Below are positions 14,616 through 64,000 of a stretch of DNA of 64,000 bases, piece after piece. The DNA lies in the NCBI GenBank assembly GCA_026396065.1, contig JAPLXO010000006.1, forward strand, positions 1,525 to 65,524, read 5' to 3'. A program made the translations under genes and the position numbers. Each line of letters opens with the position of its first letter. Position 1 is the stretch's first letter. Source of the stretch: Candidatus Nomurabacteria bacterium (GTDB taxonomy: Bacteria; Patescibacteriota; Minisyncoccia; Phycocordibacterales; UBA9973). Under the pieces are notes generated by a model. It did not search any database. It was not told the DNA's origin and saw nothing but the letters and a program-made list of their open reading frames with translations.

Positions 14616-14645
14616 TTAGGTGGAAAGCTAAAGCTTTCGATATTG

Positions 14646-14717
14646 GGCCTGGTAGCCAAGTGGTAAGGCATTCCTCTGCAAAAGGAATATACGGCGGTTC
14701 GATTCCGCCCCAGGCCT
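14646..14717 (+). tRNA. tRNA-Cys (anticodon GCA)
   Basis: Acceptor GGCCTGG/CCAGGCC, anticodon loop CTGCAAA, T-loop GTTCGATTC. Confidence 0.85.
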
Positions 14718-45033: not shown

Positions 45034-47331
45034 TTATAATTTCTTAACCTTAATTCTAAGTGAATTCGACACGACACTGACACTACTAAAAGCCATTGCG
45101 AGGCCGGCGAAGACGGGGTTTAGGAGCCAGCCGAAGATCGGATAGAAAAGGCCGGCAGCGAGCGGAATGCCTACTATATTATATATGAAAGCCCAGAAAA
45201 GATTTTGTTTAATTCCGCGCATGGTGATTTTCGAAAGTTTGATCGCTTTGACGAGCTTGGAAATATCTCCGTGTAGAAGCGTAATCCCTGCCGACTCGAT
45301 AGCCACATCGGTGCCCGTGCCCATAGCGATGCCGACATCGGCTTGGGCGAGAGCGGGTGCGTCGTTCACACCGTCTCCAGCCATAGCGACGACGCGCCCG
45401 TTATTTTGCAATTCTTTTATCTTCGCGAGTTTGTCCGCAGGCATCACATGCGCCACGACTTCATCGATGCCGACGAGTGATGCCATATATTTTCCAGCTT
45501 TCTCATCATCCCCAGTGAGCATAATTACTTTGATGCCGAGTTTATGCAAATCAGTGATCGCTTGTTTCGATTCAGTTTTTATTTCATCAGCGACTGTGAG
45601 GAAACCAATTACTTCCATTTTTGTAGCGAGAATCACTGGAGTCTTTCCTTGCATTGTATATTGTTCGATTTTTGTCGCGTTAAAATTAATTCCCAAATCT
45701 TTTATCATTTTCACATTGCCGACAAAATATTCTATGCCGTTCACTGTACCCCTAATTCCCTTGCCTTCTATATTTTCAAAATTACTTATTTCTTCTATTT
45801 TTATTTTATTTTCTACTGCGTAGTTCACAATTGCATTTGCAATAGGATGCTCTGACTTTTTTTCTAATGATGCGATGATTGAAATGAATTCAATCTCTGG
45901 CTCCTCAAGGACGGTCCTTAAAGAAGTCCCAAAGGACCGTCCTTTACCCGCCAGTTCGATGTCCACCAATGTCGGCTTACCGATAGTTATCGTGCCTGTT
46001 TTGTCGACAATCACGGTATCAACTTTGTGAAGTTTCTCGAGTGTCGCTGCATCTTTAATTAAAATTCCTTCTTTTGCACCTTTACCGACGCCGACAATTA
46101 TTGCTGTCGGTGTAGCGAGCCCGAGCGCACAAGGGCAAGCGATCACCAGCACGCCAACAAAACACATGAGCCCGTATGAAAGTGCTTGTGAAAAGCCGAG
46201 CGGGCCTGAAGCAAAAAAAAGCCAAGCTCCGAGTGTGATGAATGCAATCACCAAAACAATTGGTACAAAGATTGCCGAAATTTTATCAGCGAGGGCTTGA
46301 ATCGGTGCTTTACTACTTTGTGCTTCTTCAACCATTTTAATAATTTGCGCTAGTAATGTTTCCCCTCCGACTTTTGTCGCTTTGAAATTAAAAGTGCCTG
46401 TGGTATTTATCGTCCCTGCCACGACATTATCCCCAATATTTTTCTTCGCTGGCATCGGCTCACCCGTCACCATTGATTCGTCGACAAAAGAATTCCCTTC
46501 TACAATAGTTCCGTCCACTGGAATTTTTGCTCCAGGTTTAATAATAATTATATCGCCATGCACAACTTCGTTTACAGAAATTTCAATTTCTTTTCCATCA
46601 CGAATAACGAGCGCGGTTTTTGCTTGTAAATTTAAAAGTTTTTCTATTGCATCCCCTGTTTTTAATTTCGAACGAGTTTCTAAATATTTACCAAGGGCAA
46701 TAAAAGTGATGACAATAATTGTGACGTCAAAATATGTCACGCCAACATTTGGAAAATCTTTTAATAAAGTTTCTTCAAAAGCACCTACCATGAAACTGTA
46801 AAAATAAGCGACAGAGGTTCCAAGTCCTATCAATGTATCCATATTCGCTTTACCTGTTTTTAGGAAACGATAAAAACCTTGTAGATAAGGTTTACCTACC
46901 ACAAAGAGCATATACGTCGCCATCAAAGGCAAAAGATGATGGAAAAATTCTTCCCAAACTAAAGGCATACTATACTGTGTTTTGAATTGCGCCAAAATAT
47001 CCCAAGTCATGACAAAAACACTAATTACGGCGAGTGGAATTGCTGAAATAATTTTTATCTTCATATCTCTAAGTTCTGCCAACTTTTCACTTTTACCTGT
47101 AGCAAGAACCGTTCTTGCTACAGGAATAATTAGAGAGTAGCCAAGTGACTCGAGTTTTGTATTTAAACTTTCTGGATTTGTTTTACTTTCATCATAAGAG
47201 ATTTTTGCACTTTCTGTTCCAGTGTTTACAGAGATTTCTTGCACGCCATCAATTTTCTTCACAGTTCTCTCGATAATACTAGCGCAAGATGCACAGTGCA
47301 TGCCTTTTACTTTATAAGTTTTATTTTGCAT
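45034..47331 (-). CDS. copA: copper-translocating P-type ATPase
   Basis: N-terminal HMA GMHCASC; TM CPC motif (ACPCALGLATP); DKTGTIT phosphorylation site; GDGVNDAPAL. Confidence 0.9.
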   Translation of the reverse strand: MQNKTYKVKGMHCASCASIIERTVKKIDGVQEISVNTGTESAKISYDESKTNPESLNTKLESLGYSLIIPVARTVLATGKSEKLAELRDMKIKIISAIPLAVISVFVMTWDILAQFKTQYSMPLVWEEFFHHLLPLMATYMLFVVGKPYLQGFYRFLKTGKANMDTLIGLGTSVAYFYSFMVGAFEETLLKDFPNVGVTYFDVTIIVITFIALGKYLETRSKLKTGDAIEKLLNLQAKTALVIRDGKEIEISVNEVVHGDIIIIKPGAKIPVDGTIVEGNSFVDESMVTGEPMPAKKNIGDNVVAGTINTTGTFNFKATKVGGETLLAQIIKMVEEAQSSKAPIQALADKISAIFVPIVLVIAFITLGAWLFFASGPLGFSQALSYGLMCFVGVLVIACPCALGLATPTAIIVGVGKGAKEGILIKDAATLEKLHKVDTVIVDKTGTITIGKPTLVDIELAGKGRSFGTSLRTVLEEPEIEFISIIASLEKKSEHPIANAIVNYAVENKIKIEEISNFENIEGKGIRGTVNGIEYFVGNVKMIKDLGINFNATKIEQYTMQGKTPVILATKMEVIGFLTVADEIKTESKQAITDLHKLGIKVIMLTGDDEKAGKYMASLVGIDEVVAHVMPADKLAKIKELQNNGRVVAMAGDGVNDAPALAQADVGIAMGTGTDVAIESAGITLLHGDISKLVKAIKLSKITMRGIKQNLFWAFIYNIVGIPLAAGLFYPIFGWLLNPVFAGLAMAFSSVSVVSNSLRIKVKKL

Positions 47332-47335
47332 AAAA

Positions 47336-47599
47336 TTATTTTCTTTTAAGCTGATACACTTTTAAAATTTCACCGACAGCTTTCGCTGTCTGTCCTTTTT
47401 TAATTTGATCAATAGCACAACAACCTAAATGATTTTCGAGTAATACATCTTCGATATTTGAAAGACCTTGCTTCACTGCAGAAGTTTGCGTAATCACATC
47501 AATACAATATTTATCTTTTTCTATCATATCTTGCAACCCCCTCACCTGCCCTTCAATTATTTTTAATCTACGTATTATTTTTTGTTTATCTTTATGCAT
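47336..47599 (-). CDS. csoR: CsoR/RcnR-family metal-sensing repressor
   Basis: RLKIIEGQVRGLQDMIEKDKYCIDVITQ...HLGCC with the conserved Cys/His ligand positions. Confidence 0.75.
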   Translation of the reverse strand: MHKDKQKIIRRLKIIEGQVRGLQDMIEKDKYCIDVITQTSAVKQGLSNIEDVLLENHLGCCAIDQIKKGQTAKAVGEILKVYQLKRK

Positions 47600-47608
47600 A
47601 TTTATAGT

Positions 47609-47626
47609 ATACCCCCTGGGGGGTAT
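47609..47626. promoter_or_regulatory. candidate CsoR operator (GC-rich inverted repeat)
   Basis: ATACCCCC-tg-GGGGGTAT 10 nt upstream of the csoR start; matches the TACCC..GGGTA type of known CsoR operators. Confidence 0.55.
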
Positions 47627-47710
47627 TAATGCAAGTCTATAAAAATATGGCTGTGGAAAACAAACAAAGCCGGAGATAAAATCTCCGGCTTGTTACAATT
47701 ACATTAATAA

Positions 47711-48565
47711 TTACTTCTTCCTTTTAAAATTGGAATCGTAATTAACTACAGATACCTTCCTGCTAACCTCATAAAACAATACAGCTTCCTGTTGATAATA
47801 TTCAGCTGTAAAATCCACGATTTTATTAATCTGCTTTTCAGTACAAAGAAGTTTTACAGGAATCATGCGTTCCTGATAGGTTATACCCTCTTTGTTTACC
47901 CAAGTACCACGGGTGGGATTTTCGATTGTTAATCCCTTTGTAATCTTTTGAACAAATTGGTCCCATTTTTTATGGTACTCAACTTCAACCTTCACATGAT
48001 TGTTGAAATGAGTTGGAACAAGAATTTCCCAAAGAACTTTTTCTGGCCTTCTGGAAGAAAGAAGCTTCTCGTTTAATTTTTTAAGAACAACCATAGGCAC
48101 TAAATGAGAAACAATTTTTTTCCAAGTTGGATCAATTCCAACCAAACTTTTTACAATTGAAGAGCTAATCGCCTTAAATTCAGGTAAACAGTGTACGAAA
48201 ATTGTCTCAACTTGAGGACAAATTTTTCTGTTTATTGCAGCGATTATTTCTTCATCAAGTAAATCTTTGTCACTTCTGATTCCACGGATTGTTTTCTTTG
48301 CACCTAAAGAGTAGGTGTATTTTACAGCATAATGATTTTTTAAAATTTCAACGCTGACATTAAATATGTGAGCGACAGATTTTTTAATCATATCTACCCT
48401 CTCTTCTGTGTTAAACAAAAATGTACTTTTCTTGTCCTGATTTACAGCAACAAGAATTATAAATTTATCATAACGTGGTGCCATCCTTTGTACTATATCT
48501 AAATGACCATTTGTAAAAGGATCAAAACTTCCAGTGAAAGTTGCTATTCGATTTTTAGGTTTCAT
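47711..48565 (-). CDS. coaD: phosphopantetheine adenylyltransferase (CoaD) fused to ~120-aa C-terminal domain of unknown function
   Basis: GSFDPFTNGHLDIV HxGH nucleotidyltransferase motif in the first 160 aa; an uncharacterised domain follows. Confidence 0.65.
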   Translation of the reverse strand: MKPKNRIATFTGSFDPFTNGHLDIVQRMAPRYDKFIILVAVNQDKKSTFLFNTEERVDMIKKSVAHIFNVSVEILKNHYAVKYTYSLGAKKTIRGIRSDKDLLDEEIIAAINRKICPQVETIFVHCLPEFKAISSSIVKSLVGIDPTWKKIVSHLVPMVVLKKLNEKLLSSRRPEKVLWEILVPTHFNNHVKVEVEYHKKWDQFVQKITKGLTIENPTRGTWVNKEGITYQERMIPVKLLCTEKQINKIVDFTAEYYQQEAVLFYEVSRKVSVVNYDSNFKRKK

Positions 48566-48771: not shown

Positions 48772-48899
48772 TCGGGAGTTGGCAAGCGGTGGAGTGAGCT
48801 TGGGATGGGACCCAGGCGCAAGGCCGGAGCGCGACGGCGCGAGGCAAGGCTATAGAATTTTTCAGTAGAAAAATATCTGGAGCGTCGCCTGTTAATCTG
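48772..48899 (+). repeat. tRNA-associated GC-rich structured repeat, copy B, embedded in a degenerate tRNA-Asn-like leader
   Basis: 5' end TCGGGAGTTGGCAAGCGGTGGAG mimics the tRNA-Asn acceptor/D arm; core GCCGGAGCGCGACGGCGCGAGGC (48823-45); AT hairpin ATTTTTC-agta-GAAAAAT (48857-74); 3' end GTCGCCTGTTAA mimics the Asn anticodon arm; extended -10 TGCTAAAAT at 48755-63. Confidence 0.5.
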
Positions 48900-48919
48900 A
48901 ATAAAAAATGTAAAAACAT

Positions 48920-48991
48920 TCGGGAGTAGCTCAGCGGTAGAGCGGTCGCCTGTTAAGCGATTGGTCGTAGGTTCGATCCCTACCTCCCGAG
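48920..48991 (+). tRNA. tRNA-Asn (anticodon GTT)
   Basis: Acceptor TCGGGAG/CTCCCGA, D-arm GCTC/GAGC, anticodon loop CTGTTAA, T-loop GTTCGATC. Confidence 0.85.
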
Positions 48992-50662
48992 CATCGTAGA
49001 AAAAACAGAGTTAAACAGCTCTGTTTTTTCTTTTGAGCTTTTGTACACAACACAGTTTTTAGGTTCGAACTTCATGTTTTCTTCTTTTGCATGTTTGATA
49101 CCTTCAACGAGTTTGTTTACTGCAATACTGTTATGAATACTAAGTATTTCTTCATTCCAAACTAGGTTCGAACCAAGTTCTGATAACATTAATCTTTTTG
49201 TTTTTATTCCTCCAATTTCAAGATTTTCTTTAAGACAAGTAGTTAGATCAACAATTTTATTCATTTTAGAATACCAATCAACAGTTATCTTTTTCTCTGT
49301 GAGAGAATATCTTTTATTTAAAGATTCTAGGTCAGTTTTGTATTCTTCATTTGTAATTTGTTCGTCTCTAAGCATTGCACGAAGTCTTGTTTTTTTAGAT
49401 TCATATTCTAAATTGTCTATGGCTTCTTTTTCTTTTTTAAATACAACTTCATTTATTTCTTTATTTTTTAACTCAGTTATATATTGTCTTGACCAATCTG
49501 CTAATTCTTTAGAAAAGTTTAGATTACTGTCAACAAAACTGATTAATTCTTTAGATATAGTTACATCTGAAATAGAATTATATTTTTCTTTGTTTTTCTT
49601 TTTCTTAACATTATAGTAATAAGTAAAACTAAGATATTTAGGATTTTCTAACTCGGTAATTTTCCTTGCACATTTAGGGCAATGTGTTTTGTCTCTGTAG
49701 GCAAATTTAAATTTACAATCACATATGAGTTGAAACTTCACATCTTGTCCCATAGAGTCTTCTTTATCTGACTTTAAAAAACCTGAAAAAACTGTTTCAT
49801 GATGTTGAATCTTAGGAATGTTTTTACCAGAAAGAATTATTTTTATTTTGTTGTGTTGGTCCTCGGTAATAAGTCTAGGAAGTTTATTATCAAGCTCGTA
49901 TCTTTGTCCTCCTTGGAAGAAAAAACCAGCATATATAGGGTCTTTCAAGATTTCGTATATACGAGAAGGAGTAATTAAAGCCCCGCCAATTCTCTTTCTT
50001 TTTACAGTAGTTAATCTCATTTCTCTAACAGCGTACCTGTATAATTTTCCAGCTGAGTAGGTTCCTGTTAAAAACATATCGAAGAGTTTCTTTAGTGATT
50101 TTATTTTTACCTCATCTACCAACCAATCTCTGTTTCCTTTTTCTTCTGTTTTGTCATTTAAAAATCCTAAAGAAGCACAGCCGTGAGGAATACCCATACG
50201 TGCCTTTTTTTCTTGACCCCTTTTAACATTTATGGAAAGTTCTTTAATAAATTGTTTACCTTGACTGAATTCTATTGAAAGGACCATAACATTATCCCAA
50301 GGATAAAAAACTTTATCATGAGTAATAATTGCTTTTATAAAACCAGAACTCAAAAGATCAATTATCTTACCTCCCTCAGTCATATTTCTAGCTAATCTAT
50401 CAGCTTTCCAACAAACAATTGAATCTATTTCTCCTTTTTTTATCATTGACATCATTCGAGAGAACTCAGGTCTTATGCTTGCTGTTTTAGCTGATTTTGA
50501 TTCTTTAAATACCTCAACAAAAGGAGAAAGTTTATAATACTCTGATATTCTTTTAGCTTCATCAGTTTGAGAGTCAATAGAAAGCATTTGCTTATCTTCA
50601 GACTCTGAAGATTTACGGTTATAATTTCCTGGCTTTAATTGTGTAAAATCTATTGTATTCAT
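48980..50662 (-). CDS. large serine recombinase (phage-type serine integrase)
   Basis: N-terminal resolvase catalytic domain (LSIDSQ serine region, WKADRLARN); recombinase domain; zinc ribbon CDCKF...CPKCARK; C-terminal coiled coil; 560 aa; stop codon lies within the tRNA-Asn 3' end. Confidence 0.85.
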   Translation of the reverse strand: MNTIDFTQLKPGNYNRKSSESEDKQMLSIDSQTDEAKRISEYYKLSPFVEVFKESKSAKTASIRPEFSRMMSMIKKGEIDSIVCWKADRLARNMTEGGKIIDLLSSGFIKAIITHDKVFYPWDNVMVLSIEFSQGKQFIKELSINVKRGQEKKARMGIPHGCASLGFLNDKTEEKGNRDWLVDEVKIKSLKKLFDMFLTGTYSAGKLYRYAVREMRLTTVKRKRIGGALITPSRIYEILKDPIYAGFFFQGGQRYELDNKLPRLITEDQHNKIKIILSGKNIPKIQHHETVFSGFLKSDKEDSMGQDVKFQLICDCKFKFAYRDKTHCPKCARKITELENPKYLSFTYYYNVKKKKNKEKYNSISDVTISKELISFVDSNLNFSKELADWSRQYITELKNKEINEVVFKKEKEAIDNLEYESKKTRLRAMLRDEQITNEEYKTDLESLNKRYSLTEKKITVDWYSKMNKIVDLTTCLKENLEIGGIKTKRLMLSELGSNLVWNEEILSIHNSIAVNKLVEGIKHAKEENMKFEPKNCVVYKSSKEKTELFNSVFSTMLGR

Positions 50663-50853
50663 ATTGTTCTTCTATTTTATCATATTTTAATTTTTAAGTT
50701 TTCAGCCAAAGTATTAAGCAATAAAGATCCAATTTCGTTAATTTCTTGGTCGGAAAGAGAACTTCCAAAAACCTCTCCATATGATTTTTGGAGTGCAATT
50801 CTTAGATCTATTATTGCTTGTTTACTTAGCTGGAGAGGCATAAAGAATTTTAA

Positions 50854-53379
50854 TTAACTAGTAATTTCTTCATCCTCTTCGTCATCATCGATAGCGGCAC
50901 TTGTTCCTTCAATAACGCTTTTTAATAGGGACAGAGACTCCTTAGGGGGTACAGGGGCATTTAAAATGTTTGCAAATTCTTCAACCAAGAAATATAAGTA
51001 TGGGGCTTTTCCTGACTTATATGTCTCTAAATCTTTATAACAATCAAGTATTCCAAGTGCTTCTAATTCTTTTAGTGTTCTACGAATAGTTTTTGAAGAT
51101 TTTTTTATCTCTTTAGCAAGATCTGATGCTGAAAGACCACATTTAACTGTAAGTACTTTTAAAACTTCTGCTCGATCAACAGGCATAGTTGATAAAATAA
51201 CAGGTTTGATTGTTTTTATTTCTTCTTCAGTTATATTTTGTTGTCCATTTATAAAACACAATATTCGAAGTAAGGATTTTAATTGATTTAAAATTCTCCA
51301 AGGATGCTCTACTTGCCAGTCTTTTATTTCATAGAATTCAATTTTTTGACCCTTTTCATTTTCAAAAGTTGATTTACTGGTAATAGCAATACCACGAGCC
51401 TTACAAATAAACTGCGCAACGGAATTAATTTTATTTTGAATTTCTTTTGTTTCTGGTAGATTTTTATGTTCTTCAATCTTTTTAACTAATTGTGTTGCAT
51501 ATGAAGAAATAAGATGTCGAGTTTTTAAAACCTTTTCTTTTCGATTTGGCTCATTCCACGACTTATCAAATCCTACTGCCATTTCTTTTTCAGTTAAATC
51601 TGAAAGGCGTAAAAATAAGAATCGAGGACCAAGTTGTGTAGCGTAATTATAGTGTTTAATTAAAATAGAAGGAGTAATACATCCAATCATAGAAAAAAGA
51701 GAATGATATTCAACAAGACCTCTCGTTGCTGTGAATTTTTGGAACTTCCCGTCAAAAATACTAGTAAGATCTCCTAGAATCTTTTTTACCATTTCTTCAT
51801 TCATTGAAAACAAAGTGTTTAAGTCTTTTATGATAAAAGACTTATTATCAAGTAAAGGAAGTAAGTCTTGTGTTTCTGAACCGTCTGGAGGTACATATCC
51901 AGAACAAAAAGCATTTTCTGTAAGAGTATCTAATGTATAAACATCATCCATATCACTATAGAGTCCAACCAATTCAGTTTTAAAAGAAGATGGCACTCCT
52001 ATAAGAAATAACCAAAGTGGAGAACTAAGGCGCAACTGAGCTGATATTATTACTGCAGTTACTATTTTTAATGTTTCTTTATTTACTATCCCTATTTCCA
52101 ATACAGCATCATATGCCTCCTGGAAGTCTATGTCCCTATTAAGAATTAATGGTATTTTCTCTTCTTCTTTTTTTGCCTTTAATTGTGCTTGAAAAGATTT
52201 TATTCTTAAACTATTTACATAAGGAATATATTTTTTGGCATCTTCTTTTGTAATACCAAAATACTCTTTAATGTTGTGTCCAATAAAGATTTCTGCTGTT
52301 ATTTTATTAATCTCAATGAGTTTATTAAAAACAGGGCTAAGTACCTCCATTAATTTTAACTTTGGTGTATCTGACGGTATTTGTTTTAATATTTCCTCTA
52401 TTTGTTCTATTGAGACTGATTCTTCTTCTTTTTTAGAGATATCTTCCGGGTACATTTTTATAACAGCTTTTGCTGCGGCTTTAAAGTCCCCACTATGATT
52501 TAAAAAAGTAAATGTAGTAAATTTAGAATAACCTTTATTGGCTTGAAAAGGATGAGCGGATGTAGAAAATACATAAAACATAGAAATATCTCCATGATCT
52601 GTTGTAGCTGATATTCCTTGACCTTTTTCTTTGCCAGGTCTACGCCAATAGTTTTTACCTTCTTCTATCCATCCGTGTGGTTCTAATATCTCGTTCCAAG
52701 TAGCTTTCTTGTTAAATTTATCACCAGGACGATTCCCTGAAAGTGGCTCTCCTTGTTTCCACTCATATTCAGTTGCAGGTTCATCTTCAACTTCATTAAA
52801 GACTCTTAATAGATCAATTAATTCTTCGTGTATCTCGTCTGGTATTATAGGTAAATCTAAAAGACTTCCTTGTATAGTTGTATAACCACTTGAAGGTGGA
52901 ATAAGAGCATACCCACCATTGGCTTTTGTTTCTGCTGTTGTTACAATAATTCCTTTATTTTCTTTTTCATTAAATTCCACTCGTCGAGCAAGTTTTACTG
53001 TTGGCTGTGTTGTTTCTGTTCTATAACGTAAGTGAGTTCCTTTGTTTCTAGTAGTATTCTTGTGACACAAATCAACAAACTTTTTTTGTTCGTCTGAAAG
53101 CTTGTTATACCAGAGATCATACAATCCTGTATAATGCTTTTCGTCAAAATCCAAAGTGACTAGATTGTCGGAAACTTTACCTCCAGCAATAGCCCAAGAA
53201 GTAACACCTGCTTCAACCCATTTTTTAGCTTCTTCTTCTGTAGCTTTTGTGTATAAAAATTCATGTTCGTGATCTTTACTAAGACACACTGAATGTGGTC
53301 TCTTATCTCCTTCAGTAATTGGTATCACTGAAAGATTTGAATTAACTAATTTTATAATATATTCGTTTTGATTTTCCAT
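50854..53379 (-). CDS. replication protein: N-terminal bifunctional primase-polymerase (Prim-Pol) domain, helicase/DUF-like C-terminal region, wHTH near C-terminus
   Basis: NLVTLDFDEKHY and TRNKGTHLRYR (Prim-Pol core); RPGDKFNKKATWNEILEPHGW...WRRPGKEKGQGISATTDH (phage/plasmid primase region); 841 aa. Confidence 0.7.
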   Translation of the reverse strand: MENQNEYIIKLVNSNLSVIPITEGDKRPHSVCLSKDHEHEFLYTKATEEEAKKWVEAGVTSWAIAGGKVSDNLVTLDFDEKHYTGLYDLWYNKLSDEQKKFVDLCHKNTTRNKGTHLRYRTETTQPTVKLARRVEFNEKENKGIIVTTAETKANGGYALIPPSSGYTTIQGSLLDLPIIPDEIHEELIDLLRVFNEVEDEPATEYEWKQGEPLSGNRPGDKFNKKATWNEILEPHGWIEEGKNYWRRPGKEKGQGISATTDHGDISMFYVFSTSAHPFQANKGYSKFTTFTFLNHSGDFKAAAKAVIKMYPEDISKKEEESVSIEQIEEILKQIPSDTPKLKLMEVLSPVFNKLIEINKITAEIFIGHNIKEYFGITKEDAKKYIPYVNSLRIKSFQAQLKAKKEEEKIPLILNRDIDFQEAYDAVLEIGIVNKETLKIVTAVIISAQLRLSSPLWLFLIGVPSSFKTELVGLYSDMDDVYTLDTLTENAFCSGYVPPDGSETQDLLPLLDNKSFIIKDLNTLFSMNEEMVKKILGDLTSIFDGKFQKFTATRGLVEYHSLFSMIGCITPSILIKHYNYATQLGPRFLFLRLSDLTEKEMAVGFDKSWNEPNRKEKVLKTRHLISSYATQLVKKIEEHKNLPETKEIQNKINSVAQFICKARGIAITSKSTFENEKGQKIEFYEIKDWQVEHPWRILNQLKSLLRILCFINGQQNITEEEIKTIKPVILSTMPVDRAEVLKVLTVKCGLSASDLAKEIKKSSKTIRRTLKELEALGILDCYKDLETYKSGKAPYLYFLVEEFANILNAPVPPKESLSLLKSVIEGTSAAIDDDEEDEEITS

Positions 53380-53380
53380 A

Positions 53381-53450
53381 CCTGTTTGCTGTCTCTCATG
53401 ACGACCTCGGATAGCAAACAGGTGAGTTTTTATCCGAAGTCATCATGAAA
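53381..53450 (+). promoter_or_regulatory. overlapping inverted repeats with plus-strand terminator-like hairpin abutting the replication-gene start
   Basis: CCTGTTTGCT(53381-90)/AGCAAACAGG(53414-23) then TGAGTTTTT; alternative stems CGGATA/TATCCG and TCATGACGAC/GTCATCATGA. Confidence 0.4.
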
Positions 53451-53601
53451 AACAAATTAAATTTTTAAGCTTCTTCTGTGAAAGAATTACTTTTAATTTT
53501 AAACTTTAGGAAAATCATAAAAATATTACACTTTGTGACAAATAAAAAAATACCCCTATTTTGCAGAGTATTTTTAAGTAAACAAAATCAATATTCCCAG
53601 T

Positions 53602-54411
53602 TTATTTCTTTTTTGTGAATTGAATCATAAACCTAGGATTTAAATGATAGCCACGTTTGGGTTCATTTTTTATAAAATCATCAATGCTTGTTTTTCCTTT
53701 CACTATTAACTTTTTAATTTCGTTATTTATTGAGCTAATTCTGTTTTTTATATTTCCCATAGATGTAGCAAACTCTTTTGCTAGTATTTCTTTTTTGAAA
53801 CAATAATCCTTATCTTTCATATATTTGTAATATAAAAAGTGTATGATCTGTTTATCGGTGTTGTTAATTTTTTGTGATTTTTTTTTCTTATAGACAAGGT
53901 AATTGCCTTGTATTTTAATATCTAACGTTCTTAAATCTATTTCCTCTGTCATTTCAACCTCTTTAGTTCTATCGGAATCATTCCCTAGTAAATACTCTTC
54001 CATTGATTTACGTAAAATATCGTATTTTTCTTCTGTGTTTTCAAGTAGAGTATTTAGCTTATTTTTAAACTTCTTCCAAAGTTCTAAATTGTTCACTCGG
54101 ACATCTGGATGTAAAACTAAAAAATGATGTTTTGGGTTTACACGGAAAAAACATTCCACTATAAAAGTGTCTAGTTTATCGATCTCTTTATAAAATTTTA
54201 AGTGACCTGACATAAGATTTTTATCGTTGAAAGATAATCCGAATTTCCTTACATATTTTAAATATTCTCTTAAATAAATTAAATCATCTCCCTTTATCAT
54301 GTTTTGGTCTAGTGACGGAAATATACTTTCAGCTAATGTGTCTGGAAATAAAGCAAGAAATTTATTTATTTTTTCTTCATCTTTTTTCATACTATAAATT
54401 AAGTATATCAA
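53602..54411 (-). CDS. putative transcriptional regulator with C-terminal OmpR/PhoB-type winged helix
   Basis: C-terminal 80 aa (KQIIHFLYYKYM...ILAKEF...NIKNRISSINNEIKKL...KRGYHLN) fits the trans_reg_C pattern. Confidence 0.4.
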   Translation of the reverse strand: MIYLIYSMKKDEEKINKFLALFPDTLAESIFPSLDQNMIKGDDLIYLREYLKYVRKFGLSFNDKNLMSGHLKFYKEIDKLDTFIVECFFRVNPKHHFLVLHPDVRVNNLELWKKFKNKLNTLLENTEEKYDILRKSMEEYLLGNDSDRTKEVEMTEEIDLRTLDIKIQGNYLVYKKKKSQKINNTDKQIIHFLYYKYMKDKDYCFKKEILAKEFATSMGNIKNRISSINNEIKKLIVKGKTSIDDFIKNEPKRGYHLNPRFMIQFTKKK

Positions 54412-54522
54412 AAAAGAAGACTTTTAATCAATTTTCACAGTTTTAAAGGTAAGAGAATATTAAAAAATATCGATGTCCTTCCTTCACCCTCCCATCTAAA
54501 TGCTACTTTTCTAATATTTATA

Positions 54523-55257
54523 CTAAATATACTTACTTCGTTGTCTATTCCAATTAGAGATGATCTCTCTTTTACTGTTCCTATTCTCATGCTTTCTACG
54601 AATAGTATTAGCCTTATACTTCAGCCTTTCGATCCTAATAGCTCTTTTGGTAAGCATTCCCTTGTATAACGGCCTTTTGGTGCTCAAAATAGCATTTCTT
54701 AGCTTATTATTCAAATCCATTTCCTTTCCTAATTGGTCCACTTTGTTGTTCCTATTGAAATTAGATACCTTATATCTCAAATGCAAACATGATTTACATT
54801 TAAACTCTGTTCCATTAGAAGGAAGGAATAACTTCGCCGCCCTATAACCGCATTCACATCTAAAGAGTGTTCTTTCGCCATAGCGTAAATATACAGTAGT
54901 CAGCACTATTCTTTGTGGTTCATTATTCACTACACTTACAGTTAAAAACGTGTCAGCCTCGTATTCAGGCCAAAAGTAGACTACTGATCCCTTGTTAGTC
55001 GTAAACATATCATTTATATATTCCTTTTTACGTATTTGAGCAAAGACCCCCTTAAGCTTTTTAGAGTCTAGTATTACACAATCTTCAACGAATATTTTGT
55101 TACTTGTTGTCGGCATTATATGTGTATTATCCCATAAGTCTTTAGATTGGACCAAAATATTGAATTTTTTTAGAAAAAATTTTAGAGGGTCAACGATTTT
55201 TAAAAGGAGAATAATTCCAAATATTGGTTTTTCTTCCCAGCTAGCGATAGGTATCAT
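54523..55257 (-). CDS. hypothetical protein with Cys4 zinc-ribbon-like motif
   Basis: CECGYRAAKLF...CKSCLHLRY; basic C-terminus. Confidence 0.35.
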   Translation of the reverse strand: MIPIASWEEKPIFGIILLLKIVDPLKFFLKKFNILVQSKDLWDNTHIMPTTSNKIFVEDCVILDSKKLKGVFAQIRKKEYINDMFTTNKGSVVYFWPEYEADTFLTVSVVNNEPQRIVLTTVYLRYGERTLFRCECGYRAAKLFLPSNGTEFKCKSCLHLRYKVSNFNRNNKVDQLGKEMDLNNKLRNAILSTKRPLYKGMLTKRAIRIERLKYKANTIRRKHENRNSKREIISNWNRQRSKYI

Positions 55258-55553
55258 ACCCTAGATGGTACCTTGACTGACCTGTATTAAAAGGAACAAC
55301 CCCCCAATACCCCATATACCCACTTGTCACTTACTTCATTATCATACCAACCCAACACTAGTCATTAGTTTATTGTTATTAATATAGCCGTCATGTATAT
55401 ATAAATATTACAGTCATACTATCTAACATTATTACTACTTACTTTACTTAATTACAAAGAAAACTATTTTTTAGGATTGAAATTATACATCAATCCTTTT
55501 TAGCTTATCTAGTCCATAAGCTTTTTATTATTAACCATTATTAATTAAATCAA

Positions 55554-55871
55554 ATGCAAAGCGTAAAAGAATTTATGGAAGCCCCTGTGTCCTCATTTAC
55601 AGGATCTGAAGTAACAAAAAAGCTAATGGAAGAAGCTATTATTTCTCGATACGGAAGAGCAGAATTAAAAAATTTGGACTGCTACCATACCATGAGAACA
55701 TTCCATTCCTGGGTGAAGTTAGGTTTTAAGGTTCGTAAAGGAGAAAAAGCATTTAAATCAATTACATATATCGAGGTAAAAGATAGTGCTGGAAATGTGA
55801 TAAGGAAGATAAAGAGACCTTGCTTTCTATTTTATTACAAACAAATCGAGCCGATTTCTAAAACTGTATGA
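55554..55871 (+). CDS. hypothetical protein
   Basis: 105 aa; first gene of a 4-gene plus-strand operon with 4-nt overlaps. Confidence 0.35.
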   Translation: MQSVKEFMEAPVSSFTGSEVTKKLMEEAIISRYGRAELKNLDCYHTMRTFHSWVKLGFKVRKGEKAFKSITYIEVKDSAGNVIRKIKRPCFLFYYKQIEPISKTV

Positions 55872-56050
55872 AAACTCAAATGACAATTTCTTCTCAATAC
55901 AGAGAAAGAAAATCAAGAGACTTAGATATAGTTCCAAAGCTTGTTATAGCTAACCACTTTTTGAAAAATATCAGTGGTCTTTCGGTCTCAGATAGAATTA
56001 CAGTCGAGTATCTAAAGGAGGGTCAGATCATTATTACTAAATTAACATAA
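55868..56050 (+). CDS. small hypothetical protein (possible AbrB/MazE-like swapped-hairpin)
   Basis: 60 aa; PKLVIANHFLKNISGLSVSDRITVEYLKEGQIIITK resembles a SpoVT/AbrB-type domain; weak. Confidence 0.3.
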   Translation: MKTQMTISSQYRERKSRDLDIVPKLVIANHFLKNISGLSVSDRITVEYLKEGQIIITKLT

Positions 56051-56054
56051 ACAT

Positions 56055-56600
56055 ATGATAGATAATTATAAAAACAGTGTTCCTTCGCCTTATGGTAAAA
56101 CACAGGAGAAGAAAAGTCCTATACAAGAAGAATTAGATAAAAGTATTGGCACATTCAATCTTACAGCTATAGTAAAAGAAGATACTGACACGGCCAGTCA
56201 GCTTAGTCACATACCTGGACTAATCTCATTAATCTGTACACTTAAGCTTGGAGATAAAGTAATAGGTATTGGTAGAGGTAGTGCAACATTAAACCGCATG
56301 AATCGAGTTGTAGAGCGTGGAGTGAGATATAGCTTTGGCAATGCTTTAGTTGATGCAGTGGTCCGAGGAGTTAAAAACCTTGACACTTTATATTTCCAGT
56401 CAACTAATCAAGGAGAAAATAATTTTACTTCAAGTGGTGTTCTAGAAGACGAGCCAGCCTCTGATAAACAGAAGTCGTATTTACAGAAACTCATAACCCT
56501 AAACATTACAGATATAAAAGAACGTAATAAGTGGGAATTGGAACTCAATCAGCTAACGAAGAATCAAGCTTCAGACAAAATCAAAGCTCTTATTAATTAA
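56055..56600 (+). CDS. hypothetical protein
   Basis: 181 aa; no recognisable motif. Confidence 0.35.
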   Translation: MIDNYKNSVPSPYGKTQEKKSPIQEELDKSIGTFNLTAIVKEDTDTASQLSHIPGLISLICTLKLGDKVIGIGRGSATLNRMNRVVERGVRYSFGNALVDAVVRGVKNLDTLYFQSTNQGENNFTSSGVLEDEPASDKQKSYLQKLITLNITDIKERNKWELELNQLTKNQASDKIKALIN

Positions 56601-56610
56601 AATAATCATT

Positions 56611-56844
56611 ATGAATACAGTTATAAAAAATCGTGATAGATCTATTCGAGATTATAATTTCTTTATGGAAGATACTGATGAGCCAGGAATGGCTACAAGT
56701 ACACAAAAACGTACTCTCAAAGATTTAATAGTTCAAAATATCGACGATAGTGAAAAACAAGAGATATGCATTAACCAAATTCGAGATATTTCGCAAGACG
56801 AAGCATCTTTGTGGATAAGGGAGATGGAAAACGGTCTTTGGTAG
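56611..56844 (+). CDS. hypothetical protein
   Basis: 77 aa acidic protein. Confidence 0.3.
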   Translation: MNTVIKNRDRSIRDYNFFMEDTDEPGMATSTQKRTLKDLIVQNIDDSEKQEICINQIRDISQDEASLWIREMENGLW

Positions 56845-56846
56845 TT

Positions 56847-56899
56847 AAAAGGAAGGAAGTAATGCTAGGTACTTAGCAAAACTACCTTCCTTTTTTATT
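56847..56899 (+). terminator. rho-independent terminator of the 55554-56844 operon
   Basis: Perfect 10-bp stem AAAAGGAAGG/CCTTCCTTTT plus T-run. Confidence 0.65.
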
Positions 56900-56925
56900 T
56901 GGTCCTAAAATGCTATGCTTTAGGA

Positions 56926-57060
56926 GTACCCGCATTAAATAATGTCAGTTAAAAGTCCCTTAAATAGGGCTGAGTTTCCATTTGTGTACTGAAAGGGCAA
57001 CCTTGATGCGCATAAGTGGAAGCTTCGGCTGACATTAATGCGGGTACCATCAGGTTGCCC
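56926..57060. other. complex interleaved inverted-repeat structure (candidate ori/att site or structured RNA)
   Basis: IR1 GTACCCGCATTAA(ataa)TGTCAG (56926-48) / CTGACATTAATGCGGGTAC (57029-47); IR2 GGGCAACCTTGATG (56995-57008) / CATCAGGTTGCCC (57048-60), interleaved with IR1. Confidence 0.5.
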
Positions 57061-57104
57061 TTTTCTATGTTATCTGATGATTATTATTTTAACTAATAAT
57101 TTTC

Positions 57105-57989
57105 ATGAAAAAAAAACAATTACCGTTAGTTATTGTTATTGTTTTATTAGTTGTTCCACTAGTTGCTATAAGTGCATGGTGGAATCCTTTTCATTGGTTC
57201 AAGAAAAAAGAGATTCAAACTCCAGTAGTTCAGACCTTGGTCCCTATTGTTGTAAACGATAAGACCGTTTTAACTTCAAAAGAAAGTTCTACTATTCAGA
57301 CTGACTCAACTTTAGATTACACAACAACTACTGCATTTAAAAATTCTGTCTTTGCAGATCCTGGTATATTTCCTTTACTTGATACTACAATATATCTTTC
57401 TGGTGATGAAAGTGTTGTTAGGTCACGAGATGGACAGATAATACTACCAGTAAAATATGATTACAACCAATCAATCACAGCAATAGATACATTCTTACTA
57501 AATCAAACACTAGAGACTTTTAAAACATTTTGCAATAAAGCAAAAGAGTTACCTAGTATAGGTCAGAAGAAAGTTCTTAATGATACAAAGACGGATTTTA
57601 TTATGAAAGATAATACTTTGTATGACGATTATAATTTAGGAAAGTTATGTACTATCGCTCTTGGTCAAGATAAAAATTCATCTTATTATAAATGGACAAC
57701 ATATAGCCCCTCTTATTTTGTTACTTTTGATAATCCTAATGAGTCAGACAAAGCTAGAACACTTAAAATAAATTACAATGCTTTTTGGAAAAGTTTATCA
57801 GATTACAAATTAATAGGATTTGATATTTGGCAAAATAAAGATGCGGTTACCCCTAATCAAGTAATAGATAAAATGGTTAGTGTTAATAATGAGGCGTTAT
57901 TTTTTACCACTTTTAATAATGGCTTCTTTCTTGTGCCAGAAAAAATATTATCAAGTATCGAAGGACAGCTTAAGGTACATAATAAATAA
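57105..57989 (+). CDS. hypothetical secreted/membrane-anchored protein
   Basis: 294 aa, N-terminal signal-anchor. Confidence 0.4.
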   Translation: MKKKQLPLVIVIVLLVVPLVAISAWWNPFHWFKKKEIQTPVVQTLVPIVVNDKTVLTSKESSTIQTDSTLDYTTTTAFKNSVFADPGIFPLLDTTIYLSGDESVVRSRDGQIILPVKYDYNQSITAIDTFLLNQTLETFKTFCNKAKELPSIGQKKVLNDTKTDFIMKDNTLYDDYNLGKLCTIALGQDKNSSYYKWTTYSPSYFVTFDNPNESDKARTLKINYNAFWKSLSDYKLIGFDIWQNKDAVTPNQVIDKMVSVNNEALFFTTFNNGFFLVPEKILSSIEGQLKVHNK

Positions 57990-57994
57990 AATAT

Positions 57995-58870
57995 ATGAAA
58001 AAAATATTAATTACATTTATCGTTATTGTTTCAATATTCTCTATAACTCAAAAAGCTTCGGCTGTTCTTTTCTTCTGTCCTCCTCTGATGGATTTATCTA
58101 CATCACCTCAACAAACAGAAAGAATACAGATACAAATTCAAGGTATAGCTACAACTGATAACATTCCTTTACCTATTGGAACAACTATAAACTATAGCGC
58201 CTTACCTTTAAATTTTTCCGCATGTGGGAATAGTGACAAAGGAACAAATGGATCTTTTACTATTAATAAAGCAAATGGACAATATGGTCCAACATCAATA
58301 TCAGTTCCACTTAATACACCATATCTTTCTTTGGCACTTTACTCAATCCCTAAAGATTATTTAGCGGGTAGAGTTATTCAAGGTGATTCCTCGATGCAAT
58401 TTACAATTACACCTAGTATGGCAAACACTACAATAACTCAAAATCTTGCTTTTAAAGCAAAGTTAATAGTTCCTCCACCTATTCCACCACCATTACCTCC
58501 GTTACCATCTTTCCCAGAAGAACCACTGTACCCTAAACTCGGAGAAACATTACCACCACCAATGGATGATACAGCTAAAATTGAAATATGTAGAAATGCA
58601 AATTCTCGTTTCGATAAATTTGATAATCGTTGTACTTATTGTCCAATAGATTTTGTAGTAAGTAAGACTGGAACTAATTGTATTAAGAGCACTGGAGATG
58701 AGTATCTTAAAGTAGTAGAAATTGAGACTCCAGTTAAAACAAAAACACCAGTAATTAAAAAAGAGATTAAAAATACAGAAGTCGTAGCTCCTATTGTTTC
58801 TATCGCTAATACTCCACCAATGCAAAAACTTTCTTGGTGGAGAAGGTTTATTAATTGGATAAAAAATTAA
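57995..58870 (+). CDS. hypothetical secreted protein with Pro-rich segment and Cys-rich C-terminus
   Basis: Signal peptide; PPPIPPPLPPLP linker; CxxC pairs near the C-terminus. Confidence 0.4.
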   Translation: MKKILITFIVIVSIFSITQKASAVLFFCPPLMDLSTSPQQTERIQIQIQGIATTDNIPLPIGTTINYSALPLNFSACGNSDKGTNGSFTINKANGQYGPTSISVPLNTPYLSLALYSIPKDYLAGRVIQGDSSMQFTITPSMANTTITQNLAFKAKLIVPPPIPPPLPPLPSFPEEPLYPKLGETLPPPMDDTAKIEICRNANSRFDKFDNRCTYCPIDFVVSKTGTNCIKSTGDEYLKVVEIETPVKTKTPVIKKEIKNTEVVAPIVSIANTPPMQKLSWWRRFINWIKN

Positions 58871-59457
58871 AATATATGGAAAATAAAAAAGAAGAAGTTA
58901 CTAAAGGAAATAGTTTTAACCTTATTGTTATTATGATAATAGTATTTATAGGTTTTGCGATTTTTTTGAATCATAACGTTAAAAATTCTGACACTAAAGA
59001 TTCAACTGAGCCAAATAAAGCTCAAGTTGAAAATAAATTAAGTATTAATACAGATGAAACAAATATTAATACAAATGAAGCACAAGTAAAACCTAATTTA
59101 GAAATTACATATGATATGTATCAGAAAATTATAGATAAAATAAAATCGAGTCCAAATCAAGAAATTATTTCAGACAAATCTTTAGAGATTAGTGGAATGT
59201 CAATTGCTCTTATGTATGCTATGTATCAAAATCATTTAATTATTACAAGTACTATTACAAATAAAGAAACAGGAGTAAAAGAACCGAGTGCTAGTTTTAT
59301 TGACGAAGATTTAGATGGTTATCCTGATTCTTGGGTAGATGAAGGTAGTAATCAAAGAAATTTATTTGATAAAAATAGTCCTGAATATAATGATATTTCT
59401 CATCGTATTTGGGCTTCTTTTTTAGCATTTTTTAATAATAACATTCTTAATAATTAA
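58855..59457 (+). CDS. hypothetical membrane-anchored protein
   Basis: 200 aa, one TM. Confidence 0.35.
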   Translation: MDKKLKYMENKKEEVTKGNSFNLIVIMIIVFIGFAIFLNHNVKNSDTKDSTEPNKAQVENKLSINTDETNINTNEAQVKPNLEITYDMYQKIIDKIKSSPNQEIISDKSLEISGMSIALMYAMYQNHLIITSTITNKETGVKEPSASFIDEDLDGYPDSWVDEGSNQRNLFDKNSPEYNDISHRIWASFLAFFNNNILNN

Positions 59458-59461
59458 ATTT

Positions 59462-59683
59462 ATGCCATTATTTTATTTAGCAGGTTTAGCATTGTGTATT
59501 ATTGAACTTCATTTTTTTTATGTATGGTGGAACATTGGTTTGTTTATAGGAATTTTTCTTAGCCCAATCATAGCTCCGTTTTTTCCTTTTATATATTGGT
59601 TTAAGGAAGGAACTTTTCCAGTTTTTTATTTCATTATTTGGGGAGTAGGTATTGCAACATTTATTTTTAGTAATAGAGATTAA
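59462..59683 (+). CDS. small hypothetical membrane protein
   Basis: 73 aa, 2 TM, aromatic-rich. Confidence 0.3.
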   Translation: MPLFYLAGLALCIIELHFFYVWWNIGLFIGIFLSPIIAPFFPFIYWFKEGTFPVFYFIIWGVGIATFIFSNRD

Positions 59684-59688
59684 AAATA

Positions 59689-59910
59689 ATGAAAGAAACA
59701 TCATGCGATACACCATTCACTCAAGAAGAAATGGATAATATAATTGCATTAGGTGAAGTCTTACGTAGTATTAATAATCGGTTACTTAAGGAAGGTGTAA
59801 TTAGAAGAGAAAATTGTAAGACAGTTTGGCCGGAAAAGGCTTTGGAAGAACTTAAAACAAAGAAACGAGATGATCTCACTAAAAGAATTCAAAAAAGCAC
59901 TTCCTGCTGA
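59689..59910 (+). CDS. hypothetical protein
   Basis: 73 aa. Confidence 0.3.
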   Translation: MKETSCDTPFTQEEMDNIIALGEVLRSINNRLLKEGVIRRENCKTVWPEKALEELKTKKRDDLTKRIQKSTSC

Positions 59911-60088
59911 CTGTAATTTAACAGAAGAGGAAATATTGAAACTAAGAGAAAATCAAGATAAACACGCTGAGATTTTCTTTAACATGTGGCTTGAAGATAG
60001 AAAGAAAGGAAATATCTAACTCGTCAAGTATCATTGTATTTCTAAGGTAAAAAAGATATACTTTGTAATGTATATTTACGATAAATAA

Positions 60089-62035: not shown

Positions 62036-62039
62036 GGAC

Positions 62040-63191: not shown

Positions 63192-64000
63192 AACAATTTA
63201 GTCCGTTTGATAAAAATAAATTTATTGGTTATGTATCTAAAGTTACACCAGAACTTACAAAAATTCACTTTCCAAACTCTAAACTTTTAAAAAAGTTTTA
63301 TTACGATGGAGATGTTTTACACAGTGGTATAGTAAGAAGCTATGTTGTAATAGAGGGAGAAGGTTATGGTTTTTTAGGAAAAGTTATTTCTATTGAATTA
63401 CCAGAAAAAGAAAGAATGTTTTTAAGTGAAGCGTCTTTTCAAAATACTGATCTTCATCCAGTAGGGACTATTGAGATACAACTTTCTTTTAAAATTTTTG
63501 AAAAATTGAAAGCTCAAAAAGGACTTGATCAATATCCCCCAGTTGGAGCGAAAGTCTATGCTTGCTCACTAGATTTTTTAAAAAACTTTTTAGAAGATTT
63601 TGGTAAAGAAGATGATGAAATTGATGATCTAATAGAAATTGCTTCTTTACCACAAGATGAAAGCACAAATATAAAAATATCAGCTAACTCTTTATTTAGT
63701 AGGCACTGTGCTATTGTTGGAACTACTGGAGGTGGAAAAAGTTATACTGTAGCCAAAACAATAGAGGAACTTTTAAAAAAGAAAAAAATTATAAAAATGG
63801 TTCTCATAGATTCTACTGGTGAATTTAGTGAATTAGATCAAATTAATAGTTTTTATTTTGGTAAAAATGGATCTATATATCTCGATTATATTAATCTCAC
63901 AGAGTCAGATCTATTCGCTCTTTTTAGACCATCTGGACAAACTCAAGTTCCAGTTCTTCAAAAGGCAATAAAAAGTTTAAAACTCGCCCGAGCATTAGAA
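63188..64000 (+). CDS. herA: HerA-like ATPase/helicase (partial, truncated by window end)
   Basis: N-terminal HAS-barrel-like region (GYVSKVTPEL...YVVIEGEGYGFLGKVISIEL) then Walker A HCAIVGTTGGGKSYTV; open to the window end. Confidence 0.7.
   Translation, partial: MKQFSPFDKNKFIGYVSKVTPELTKIHFPNSKLLKKFYYDGDVLHSGIVRSYVVIEGEGYGFLGKVISIELPEKERMFLSEASFQNTDLHPVGTIEIQLSFKIFEKLKAQKGLDQYPPVGAKVYACSLDFLKNFLEDFGKEDDEIDDLIEIASLPQDESTNIKISANSLFSRHCAIVGTTGGGKSYTVAKTIEELLKKKKIIKMVLIDSTGEFSELDQINSFYFGKNGSIYLDYINLTESDLFALFRPSGQTQVPVLQKAIKSLKLARALE

Follow-up and report, generated by a model that had tools for sequence, protein, structure and literature searches.

A probable plasmid-like element integrated at tRNA-Asn by a large serine recombinase in Candidatus Nomurabacteria

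Mobile elements that encode archaeo-eukaryotic-type primases (AEP) integrate mostly into tRNA genes, using either tyrosine or serine recombinases (Kazlauskas et al. 2018, PMC5862659). Site-specific serine integrases are described as usually landing inside dispensable protein-coding genes, which they disrupt, tRNA 3' ends being the targets of tyrosine integrases (review PMC5704250). Here we analyzed a stretch of 64,000 nucleotides, called the window below, from the chromosome of a Candidatus Nomurabacteria bacterium (Patescibacteria; candidate phyla radiation, CPR; genome GC content 31%), the same DNA being present in Logan contigs of SRR20698644. Its replicase and integrase are identical to proteins of a metagenome-assembled genome from Candidatus Nomurabacteria. 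In the DNA from position 48993 to at least 64000 we probably see the integrase-proximal portion of a plasmid-like element that a large serine recombinase (LSR) has inserted at tRNA-Asn. Elements with AEP primases that are integrated at tRNA genes are already known; the part that appears to be new is the serine integrase family at tRNA-Asn in CPR bacteria.

Elements of the pRN1 type and of the PrimPol-PV1 supergroup resemble this locus in combining a primase-polymerase with a helicase-class ATPase and a winged helix, in their integration into tRNA genes and in their variable uncharacterised genes, whereas here the host belongs to the CPR, the putative ATPase is recognised by its fold alone and the open reading frame (ORF) of the LSR runs into the tRNA. 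A fusion of PrimPol and MCM is also carried by a prophage of Bacillus cereus (BcMCM). With characterized LSR systems (phiC31, Bxb1, A118, TP901-1, TndX of Tn4451 and the integrative mobilizable elements (IMEs) of Firmicutes), the integrase shares the resolvase and recombinase domains followed by a four-Cys zinc ribbon, a very short putative att core and an apparent 5-bp outward shift of a half-site motif in the presumed attP compared to attB, but members of its family insert at the final bases of a tRNA gene and leave it intact. A tRNA 3'-end site, a terminal int gene beside the tRNA and distal cargo are also found in islands and satellites with tyrosine integrases (P4-like elements, phage-inducible chromosomal islands (PICI), NBU1, IMEs), and the landing site at a tRNA 3' end recurs in the 'tRNA-dependent lysogeny' of mycobacteriophages (PMC10865867). 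Unlike in these cases, the chemistry here is that of a serine recombinase, there is no long tRNA-derived repeat, and the tRNA is neither rebuilt from a copy in the element nor replaced by a tRNA that the element brings along. In tyrosine integrases of the SSV1 type (fuselloviruses), attP lies inside the int gene, which is split in two upon integration; in our locus, too, the core appears to lie inside the int ORF and integration would change the product, but only the last codons would be exchanged and the gene is complete. Neither serine integrases at tRNA-Asn nor this CPR integrase family turned up in our literature searches, and one study of horizontal gene transfer in Patescibacteria lists islands and prophages without an analysis of integrases or tRNAs. 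The features of the locus are collected in Table 1.

Table 1 Features of the tRNA-Asn locus and of the adjoining putative element (positions in the window; the slash marks the putative crossover)
Feature	Position	Strand	Basis or remark
Scar-like stretch upstream of tRNA-Asn	48773-48905	+	Degenerate tRNA-Asn 5' fragment, GC-rich insert, anticodon-arm-like piece
tRNA-Asn(GTT), intact	48920-48992	+	ARAGORN; Rfam tRNA 70.6 bits; putative integration target, attB side of attL
Large serine recombinase, int, 560 aa	48980-50662	-	Pfam Resolvase and Recombinase; PHROG integrase
Putative recombination core CGAGC/A	48988-48993		End of alignability between tRNA-adjacent and tail-variant loci; inside the last int codons
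Conserved 15-bp hairpin and U-run inside int 3' end	48998-49031		Fold -23.7 kcal/mol, z = -6.6
53-aa helical protein	50680-50841	-	Conserved directly upstream of int
Replication protein, 841 aa	50854-53379	-	PrimPol (AEP), MCM-like AAA+, C-terminal winged helix-turn-helix (wHTH)
Intergenic region upstream of replicase gene, candidate origin/operator	53380-53601		Inverted repeats and AT-rich tandem 27-mer
269-aa ORFan (262 aa from ATG in the Logan gene call)	53602-54411	-	Possible wHTH DNA-binding protein
244-aa ORFan	54523-55257	-	CxC...CxxC zinc-ribbon motif; sequence
Putative divergent promoter region	55258-55553		AT-rich, C-rich tract, short repeats; promoter-like sites on both strands
Four-gene operon (105-, 60-, 181- and 77-aa proteins)	55554-56844	+	Divergent from int/replicase block
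Terminator hairpin, then ~120-nt long imperfect hairpin	56850-57085	+	Upstream of secreted-protein genes
Five secreted/membrane ORFans (294, 291, 200/193, 73, 73 aa) and 49-aa gene	57105-60019	+	Probable cargo
Type III-like DNA methyltransferase (Mod)	60089-62035	+	PADLOC MTase_III 4.8e-170; Pfam
SIR2	62040-63191	+	PADLOC 2.1e-85; Pfam
HerA, cut by window end	from 63188	+	PADLOC 3.6e-79; Pfam; HerA homologues

The serine integrase and its putative tRNA-Asn target

Judged by its sequence, the 560-aa protein is a bona fide LSR. Its N-terminus matches the Pfam family Resolvase (PF00239, 55.4 bits with a cut-off of 23.3, E 9.7e-15), and the protein also matches Recombinase (PF07508, 31.6 bits with a cut-off of 21.1, E 2e-7) and a PHROG integrase profile (1e-37). 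The catalytic motif YNRKSS aligns to YCRVST of a transposon recombinase of solved structure (PDB 3G13). In an alignment of 20 integrase homologues, Y14, R16, S18 and S19 were invariant, as were the cysteines C314, C316, C328 and C331 of a putative zinc ribbon; the Pfam model Zn_ribbon_recom did not match, and the zinc ribbon is read from the Cys motif. The initial annotation had made its integrated element depend on catalytic-serine recombinase homology in this protein, and this homology is indeed present.

The overlap of the integrase gene with the tRNA-Asn 3' end, described in the same annotation, was borne out as well. The two genes meet tail-to-tail and share 13 nt; when reverse-complemented, the last 13 nt of the tRNA are the three final sense codons and the TAG stop of int. 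This arrangement is conserved in the family. The integrase has over 600 homologues with identities of 57-78%, nearly all of them in Paceibacteria/Parcubacteria; 80 genome loci were fetched, and members of the family lie tail-to-tail on tRNA-Asn in more than 20 other Patescibacteria contigs. At about 15 of the genome loci, int lies tail-to-tail on tRNA-Asn as here (...TTTTCTACnnTGCTC(acceptor)gTAG/GGATCGAACC); it is also on tRNA-Asn in L172 (73% identity), L173, L127, L151 and L152, and several related contigs end inside tRNA-Asn (L015 and L023 at contig ends). Integrase relatives at 39-50% identity abut tRNA-Ser. Unrelated LSRs beside homologous PrimPol genes overlap other genes: a 588-aa LSR in L003 (12880-14646) overlaps tRNA-Trp (14581-14652) by 66 nt, and a 526-aa LSR in L006-L008 shares 4 nt with the 3' end of secA (12938-14518 and 14515-17166 in L006). 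LSR elements of Patescibacteria seem, as a general trait, to have an int ORF that extends into the target gene.

In L017 and L032, int likewise sits on a tRNA-Asn, which is interrupted at 35/36 by a group I intron of the type described by Nakagawa et al. 2026 (PMC13011429). We observed such introns (Rfam 79 and 72 bits) in L017 (11717-12002), L104 (746-1011) and L032, with an LSR on the 3' end of the same tRNA; therefore, the intron is no bar to occupation of the 3' end. A reading of L017 and L032 as attP loci with a crossover in the anticodon loop was rejected, since the flanking DNA is this intron.

Occupancy of the site is variable. A scan of Joint Genome Institute (JGI) metagenomes for the exact 21-mer of the tRNA-Asn 3' end returned 79 contigs, 40 of which were informative, i.e., had an LSR match or at least 1.5 kb downstream of the tRNA. 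A convergent LSR followed tRNA-Asn directly in 15 of these 40 contigs and was missing in the other 25. What follows the tRNA is either this integrase family, other LSR subfamilies (21-33% identity, recognised by the reverse-complement 'FEP' motif), plain terminators with unrelated genes, or scar-like repeats. The same gene order at this tRNA in all relatives, without empty sites, had been named in advance as evidence against an insertion; it was not what we found. A same-species empty site was not among the fetched loci, as none of them shares the left-flank genes.

The modules next to the integrase are exchanged between elements. Elements with this integrase family lack the PrimPol gene and retain the 53-aa gene upstream of int (tblastn, about 25 loci). 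Some of them (L014/L173, L172) also keep the four-gene operon, with a different middle module, and homologues of the replicase (59-72% identity) occur in elements with unrelated LSRs that gave no tblastn match to ours.

The position of the crossover can be narrowed down by comparing loci. The acceptor stem of tRNA-Asn is internally complementary at our locus, and its 5' and 3' strands covary in every related locus compared; this indicates that all of the mature tRNA comes from the host and that the crossover lies at its extreme 3' end. Six members of the integrase family have no tRNA after int. Four of them (L011, L020, L021 and L029) can be aligned up to ..GGAGC and diverge beyond, and their int ORF runs 12-17 codons further. 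In the divergent arm of L011, L020 and L021, a TTCGA or TTCTGA motif starts 26 nt away from the core end; the TTCGA motif of the tRNA T-arm starts 21 nt from it, i.e., 5 bp nearer. Rutherford and Van Duyne reportedly found in 2013 that attP half-sites of LSRs differ from those of attB in that the zinc-ribbon motif is moved outward by 5 bp. From the divergence after ..GGAGC and this shift, we infer that the four tail-variant loci represent attP and place the core at CGAGC/A, the very 3' end of the tRNA. Pfam searches of the flanks of the attP-like loci were uninformative. The extent to which attP mimics the tRNA varies: the far end repeats 13-17 nt of the tRNA in L013 and L044, these short repeats being 5.4 kb away in L013 and 9.3 and 10.7 kb away in L044.

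The hairpin inside the int 3' end, whose arms GAAAAAACAG...CTGTTTTTTC are kept in all members of the integrase family, probably serves as terminator of the tRNA, as the P' arm of the att site or as both. The int motif KFEPKN (49062-49078), invariant in all family members, is encoded by AAGTTCGAACCTAAAAA, a sequence about 85 nt away from the core that looks like a tRNA T-arm/T-loop; this may be a coincidence or an auxiliary or pseudo binding site.

These comparisons suggest the following course of integration. The LSR would recombine the last bases of tRNA-Asn (...GAGC/A) with an attP core located at the very 3' end of the int gene. The mature tRNA would stay host-encoded and intact, its trailer being replaced by the hairpin and U-run of the element, which would serve as terminator. 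At the same time, the C-terminal tail of the integrase would be exchanged for a short, tRNA-templated end (..STMLGR-stop). Excision, possibly aided by the 53-aa neighbour, would yield a circle.

We also observed copper-handling genes on the host side of the tRNA-Asn site (45034-48565: CopA ATPase and CsoR, Pfam) and, beyond the attP-like site of L020 (11780-14636), a multicopper oxidase and an HMA/DsbD protein; the parallel is possibly a coincidence.

Replication protein, operon and probable cargo

The 841-aa protein starts with a PrimPol domain (residues 12-174; Pfam PF09250, 36.5 bits with a cut-off of 22.8), matches PHROG 19930 DNA polymerase/primase (2.9e-39) and shows the AEP motifs LDFDEK (DxD) and NKGTH; its C-terminus matches Pfam wHTH families. 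The putative ATPase part had no match to a Pfam helicase family or other sequence profile and was recognised by its fold. A Foldseek search with the AlphaFold2 model of residues 340-841 (predicted local distance difference test (pLDDT) score 74.9) retrieved MCM4, archaeal MCM, BchI (Mg-chelatase) and AAV Rep40 (E 1e-3 to 5e-2, probability ~1.0, TM ~0.4), as well as MarR/TFIIE-type winged helices for its end. Furthermore, a Walker-A-like VPSSxKT and a downstream D are invariant. The protein thus appears to be an initiator composed of PrimPol, MCM-like AAA+ and wHTH domains. The Prim-Pol replicase of the initial annotation holds, with a probable MCM-like AAA+ domain and a wHTH in place of the suggested D5/DUF3987 type. 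The excised circle would be replicated by this protein of its own.

The region upstream of the replicase gene contains two interleaved inverted repeats at 53380-53454 (I1, 24 nt at 83%; I2, 14 nt at 93%) and is a candidate origin or operator. The structured intergenic DNA noted before is real, both here and at 56900-57085, which folds at -75.8 kcal/mol (z = -8.2). The latter hairpin belongs to no Rfam family and has no other copy in the window or the fetched loci.

Several of the small proteins can be given no more than candidate functions. The 53-aa protein, without a Pfam or PHROG match, is from its position a candidate directionality factor or regulator. The 269-aa protein has a homologue (39% identity) directly upstream of PrimPol in L006-L008; it gave no Pfam match at E ≤ 10 (including Trans_reg_C) and no PHROG match, so its previous label as an OmpR-type wHTH protein lacks profile support, a C-terminal RGYHL-like motif being recognisable by eye only. 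The 244-aa protein likewise had no Pfam or PHROG match, and the CxC...CxxC motif behind its zinc-ribbon label is visible in the sequence. For all small ORFs, Pfam at E ≤ 10 and PHROGs gave no support for an assignment as Xis or recombination directionality factor.

The divergent four-gene operon and the remaining ORFs were found as they had been described, and homologous operons occur in L003, L014/L173/L174 and L172. The 105-aa protein resembles the single-stranded DNA-binding ArdC-N domain at a sub-threshold level (Pfam ArdcN 5e-4, below the cut-off). The 60-aa protein had been called AbrB/MazE-like; no SpoVT-AbrB/MazE Pfam match at E ≤ 10 and no PHROG match was obtained, and the likeness of ...GLSVSDRITVEYLKEGQIIITKL to an AbrB hairpin is by eye only. 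The 181-aa protein belongs to an unannotated family with about 190 clusters/representatives, of which Pfam sees only a DUF3072-like C-terminus. Its AlphaFold2 model (pLDDT 88) consists of three strands and a 33-residue helix, and Foldseek retrieved RAD52/Mgm101 (E 0.05-0.2) and phage proteins named Erf/Rad52 (E 4.6e-4 to 3e-2), both with low TM. The protein thus looks like a Rad52/Erf-type annealase, though the resemblance is weak. In the proposed element, the ArdC-N-like protein and this putative annealase would handle single-stranded DNA and recombination.

The genes past 57 kb, including Mod-SIR2-HerA, are probably cargo of the same island, as the initial annotation had considered for both the secreted-protein genes and the Mod-SIR2-HerA operon. 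In relatives, defence genes lie directly past the homologous operon (L172, L173/L174), which supports this assignment: the operon is followed by DpnII restriction-modification and T5orf172 genes in L003 and, in L172, by GmrSD together with two C5 methylases. No homologue of the operon was detected in L006; there, GmrSD and a type I restriction-modification system stand past the replicase module. The secreted and membrane ORFans had no Pfam, PHROG or PADLOC match; weak homologues of the N-terminus of the 294-aa protein (p294) occur within the elements in L009 and L026. SIR2 and HerA are adjacent, with a 4-nt overlap and strong PADLOC matches, as in known SIR2-HerA anti-phage systems, with the difference that a type III-like methyltransferase gene stands before the pair and appears to be transcribed together with it. 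The cargo past the backbone would then comprise surface or secreted proteins and a Mod-SIR2-HerA anti-phage system.

Between these two groups, a 49-aa ORF (59870-60019, plus strand; MISLKEFKKAL...EEEILKLRENQDKHAEIFFNMWLEDRKKGNI) overlaps the 3' end of the 73-aa ORF at 59689-59910. Its product is homologous to that of a 50-aa gene between PrimPol and the tRNA-Trp LSR of L003, and is loosely like that of the 53-aa gene; the ORF could be a small regulator that recurs, or the trace of a second module that has decayed.

Extent, mobility and competing explanations

The island is at least 15 kb long, and its right end lies past 64000 or is unrecognisable. Position 57060, where the initial annotation had stopped, is not the end of the element, since no right-end signature was present up to 64000, and the short direct repeat of the tRNA 3' end that it proposed to look for in 57000-64000 is absent. 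One 9-nt match (CCCGAGCAT at 63986-63994, identical to the junction of tRNA end and core) lies inside the HerA ORF and was judged to be due to chance (~0.2 expected per window). LSR att sites need only a few shared bases. A missing repeat is therefore expected even for an active element, and the element of L003 has no repeat of at least 12 nt either.

Several observations nevertheless weigh against an integrated mobile element. In 49-64 kb, no second copy of the tRNA-Asn 3' end was found with a 22-mer (≤3 mismatches), a 13-mer (≤2) or a 9-mer (≤1), and a pattern search revealed no P-arm-like motif; no attR was found within the window. The base composition of the island region is not distinct from that of the host. 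There is no direct sign of a circular form of the element, and the attP-like loci lie on 7-53 kb contigs that were negative in a terminal-overlap test for circularity; these loci could be secondary-site insertions. Breaks of Logan contigs at the tRNA, considered as a trace of excision heterogeneity, were rejected as such, as a tRNA core shared among community members explains them equally well. The helicase and annealase calls depend on moderate fold matches (TM 0.3-0.4). This particular copy may not be mobile and could be decayed or composite. Moreover, Pfam and PHROGs detected no relaxase, oriT, coupling protein or type IV secretion genes in 48.9-64 kb, where ORFans remain, and any route of transfer is a matter of supposition.

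The strongest competitor, which we regard as unlikely yet worth keeping in mind, is a fixed, immobile defence island, i.e., what is left of one or several old integrations at a hot spot formed by a tRNA, maybe two tandem elements, kept for its useful Mod-SIR2-HerA and surface-protein cargo. The missing attR would fit this explanation, as would the tRNA-fragment scars upstream of tRNA-Asn, which have counterparts in other contigs, the tandem tRNA-end repeats in L044, and the 49-aa gene, which elsewhere lies between PrimPol and LSR and here is far from any integrase. However, all backbone genes are full length with intact catalytic and Walker motifs, the order of the backbone is the same as in relatives, and the lack of a repeat does not distinguish a fixed island from an active LSR element.

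Less probable still is an identity as a phage satellite (PICI/P4-like) or as the cryptic provirus of a phage that infects Patescibacteria. The order of int, small gene, primase-helicase and wHTH is phage-like, as is an Erf/Rad52-like annealase; an integrase, a regulator, a primase-helicase and recombination genes within 10-20 kb are a hallmark set of satellites too, which take over the capsids of a helper phage, and several ORFans could hide capsid-redirecting functions. But neither Pfam nor PHROGs found capsid, portal, terminase, tail or lysis genes in 48.9-64 kb, IMG/VR viral contigs contained no close relative of the integrase (best match 28% identity), and no helper phage is known. The related elements of L172 and L173 carry an S49/ClpP-class peptidase, which would be compatible with a prohead protease; its NfeD-type N-terminal domain, however, points to a cellular enzyme. 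The initial annotation had left the choice between an integrative plasmid and a small phage-like element; its plasmid-like, integrative side stands, and for the phage side no virion or packaging genes were found in 48.9-64 kb.

Finally, the very wide pairing of int and tRNA-Asn in Paceibacteria might indicate a host LSR fixed at this tRNA, such as a housekeeping invertase or resolvase, among ordinary chromosomal genes, but this is hardly credible and largely refuted by the variable occupancy, given that many contigs with the identical tRNA lack int, that the genes beside int vary between genomes at a constant int and tRNA, that int travels with replication and defence modules, and that its 560-aa architecture is that of integrases from phages and integrative and conjugative elements, not of small resolvases.

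The surroundings of the tRNA showed further structures, which we describe here as observations apart from the integrated plasmid-like element. Assemblies break exactly at the junction of int and tRNA-Asn in L015, L018, L023, L032, L033, L045 and Logan L001/L002. As the tRNA core is common to community members, such breaks are expected, and elements of this kind will be systematically fragmented and under-binned in metagenome-assembled genomes. The scar-like stretch at 48773-48905 consists of a degenerate copy of the tRNA-Asn 5' part (TTCGGGAGT..GCGGTGGAG), a GC-rich insert and an anticodon-arm-like GAGCGTCGCCTGTTAAT without T-arm; the pattern of a tRNA 5' fragment, an insert and then an intact tRNA is repeated in L104, L012 and L027. 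It resembles a trace left by something with an insertion site in the 5' half of tRNA genes, and may or may not be related to the element.

The insert is a GC-rich structured sequence of 75-95 nt (~68% GC) that adjoins tRNA genes. Two copies are in the window, at 48820-48905 upstream of tRNA-Asn and at 4340-4420 downstream of tRNA-Trp (83% identical over 58 nt), and others are in L104 (1473-1562), L141, L170, L120, L100, L012 and L027. Six copies gave a consensus structure of two hairpins with compensatory changes in 10 of 23 pairs, and no Rfam family matched. This sequence could be an undescribed noncoding RNA; alternatively, elements that target tRNAs could have it as a conserved structure at their ends or leave it behind as a scar.

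In eleven contigs (L095, L104, L113, L116, L120, L121, L134, L143, L149, L164 and L170), tRNA-Asn is separated from the remnant of an LSR 3' end by about 170 nt, called 'X'. At its start, 'X' has a degenerate, forward hairpin similar to that of the int 3' end, plus GCTCGGGAG, and its last 15-16 nt copy the tRNA-Asn 3' end exactly; no LSR ORF followed in contigs long enough to test. The 'X' stretches are probably stacked recombination scars at a hot spot.

Implications for mobile elements of Patescibacteria

Very little of the mobile elements of CPR bacteria has been charted, and few genetic tools exist for these organisms; this locus is a well-preserved example from an integrase family of more than 600 homologues. 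It exposes uncharacterised backbone proteins, including the putative MCM-like helicase recognised by fold only and a family of Rad52/Erf-like putative annealases with about 190 clusters, and also a structured RNA or DNA element linked to tRNAs. The integrase family breaks the textbook split between tyrosine integrases at tRNA ends and serine integrases in dispensable genes.

As a broader and so far speculative idea, Patescibacteria may host an undescribed superfamily of elements whose LSRs use tRNA 3' ends (Asn, Ser, Trp) as attB and carry the attP core inside int, so that integration would rewrite the C-terminal tail of the enzyme, the attP form being 12-17 residues longer. The tail exchange might then act as a built-in switch of directionality or expression. 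If this is true, the elements would supply ready-made tools for site-specific integration in bacteria that are largely genetically intractable: the integrase is a candidate one-protein integration system for Paceibacteria with a predictable attB, namely the last bases of the universally present tRNA-Asn.

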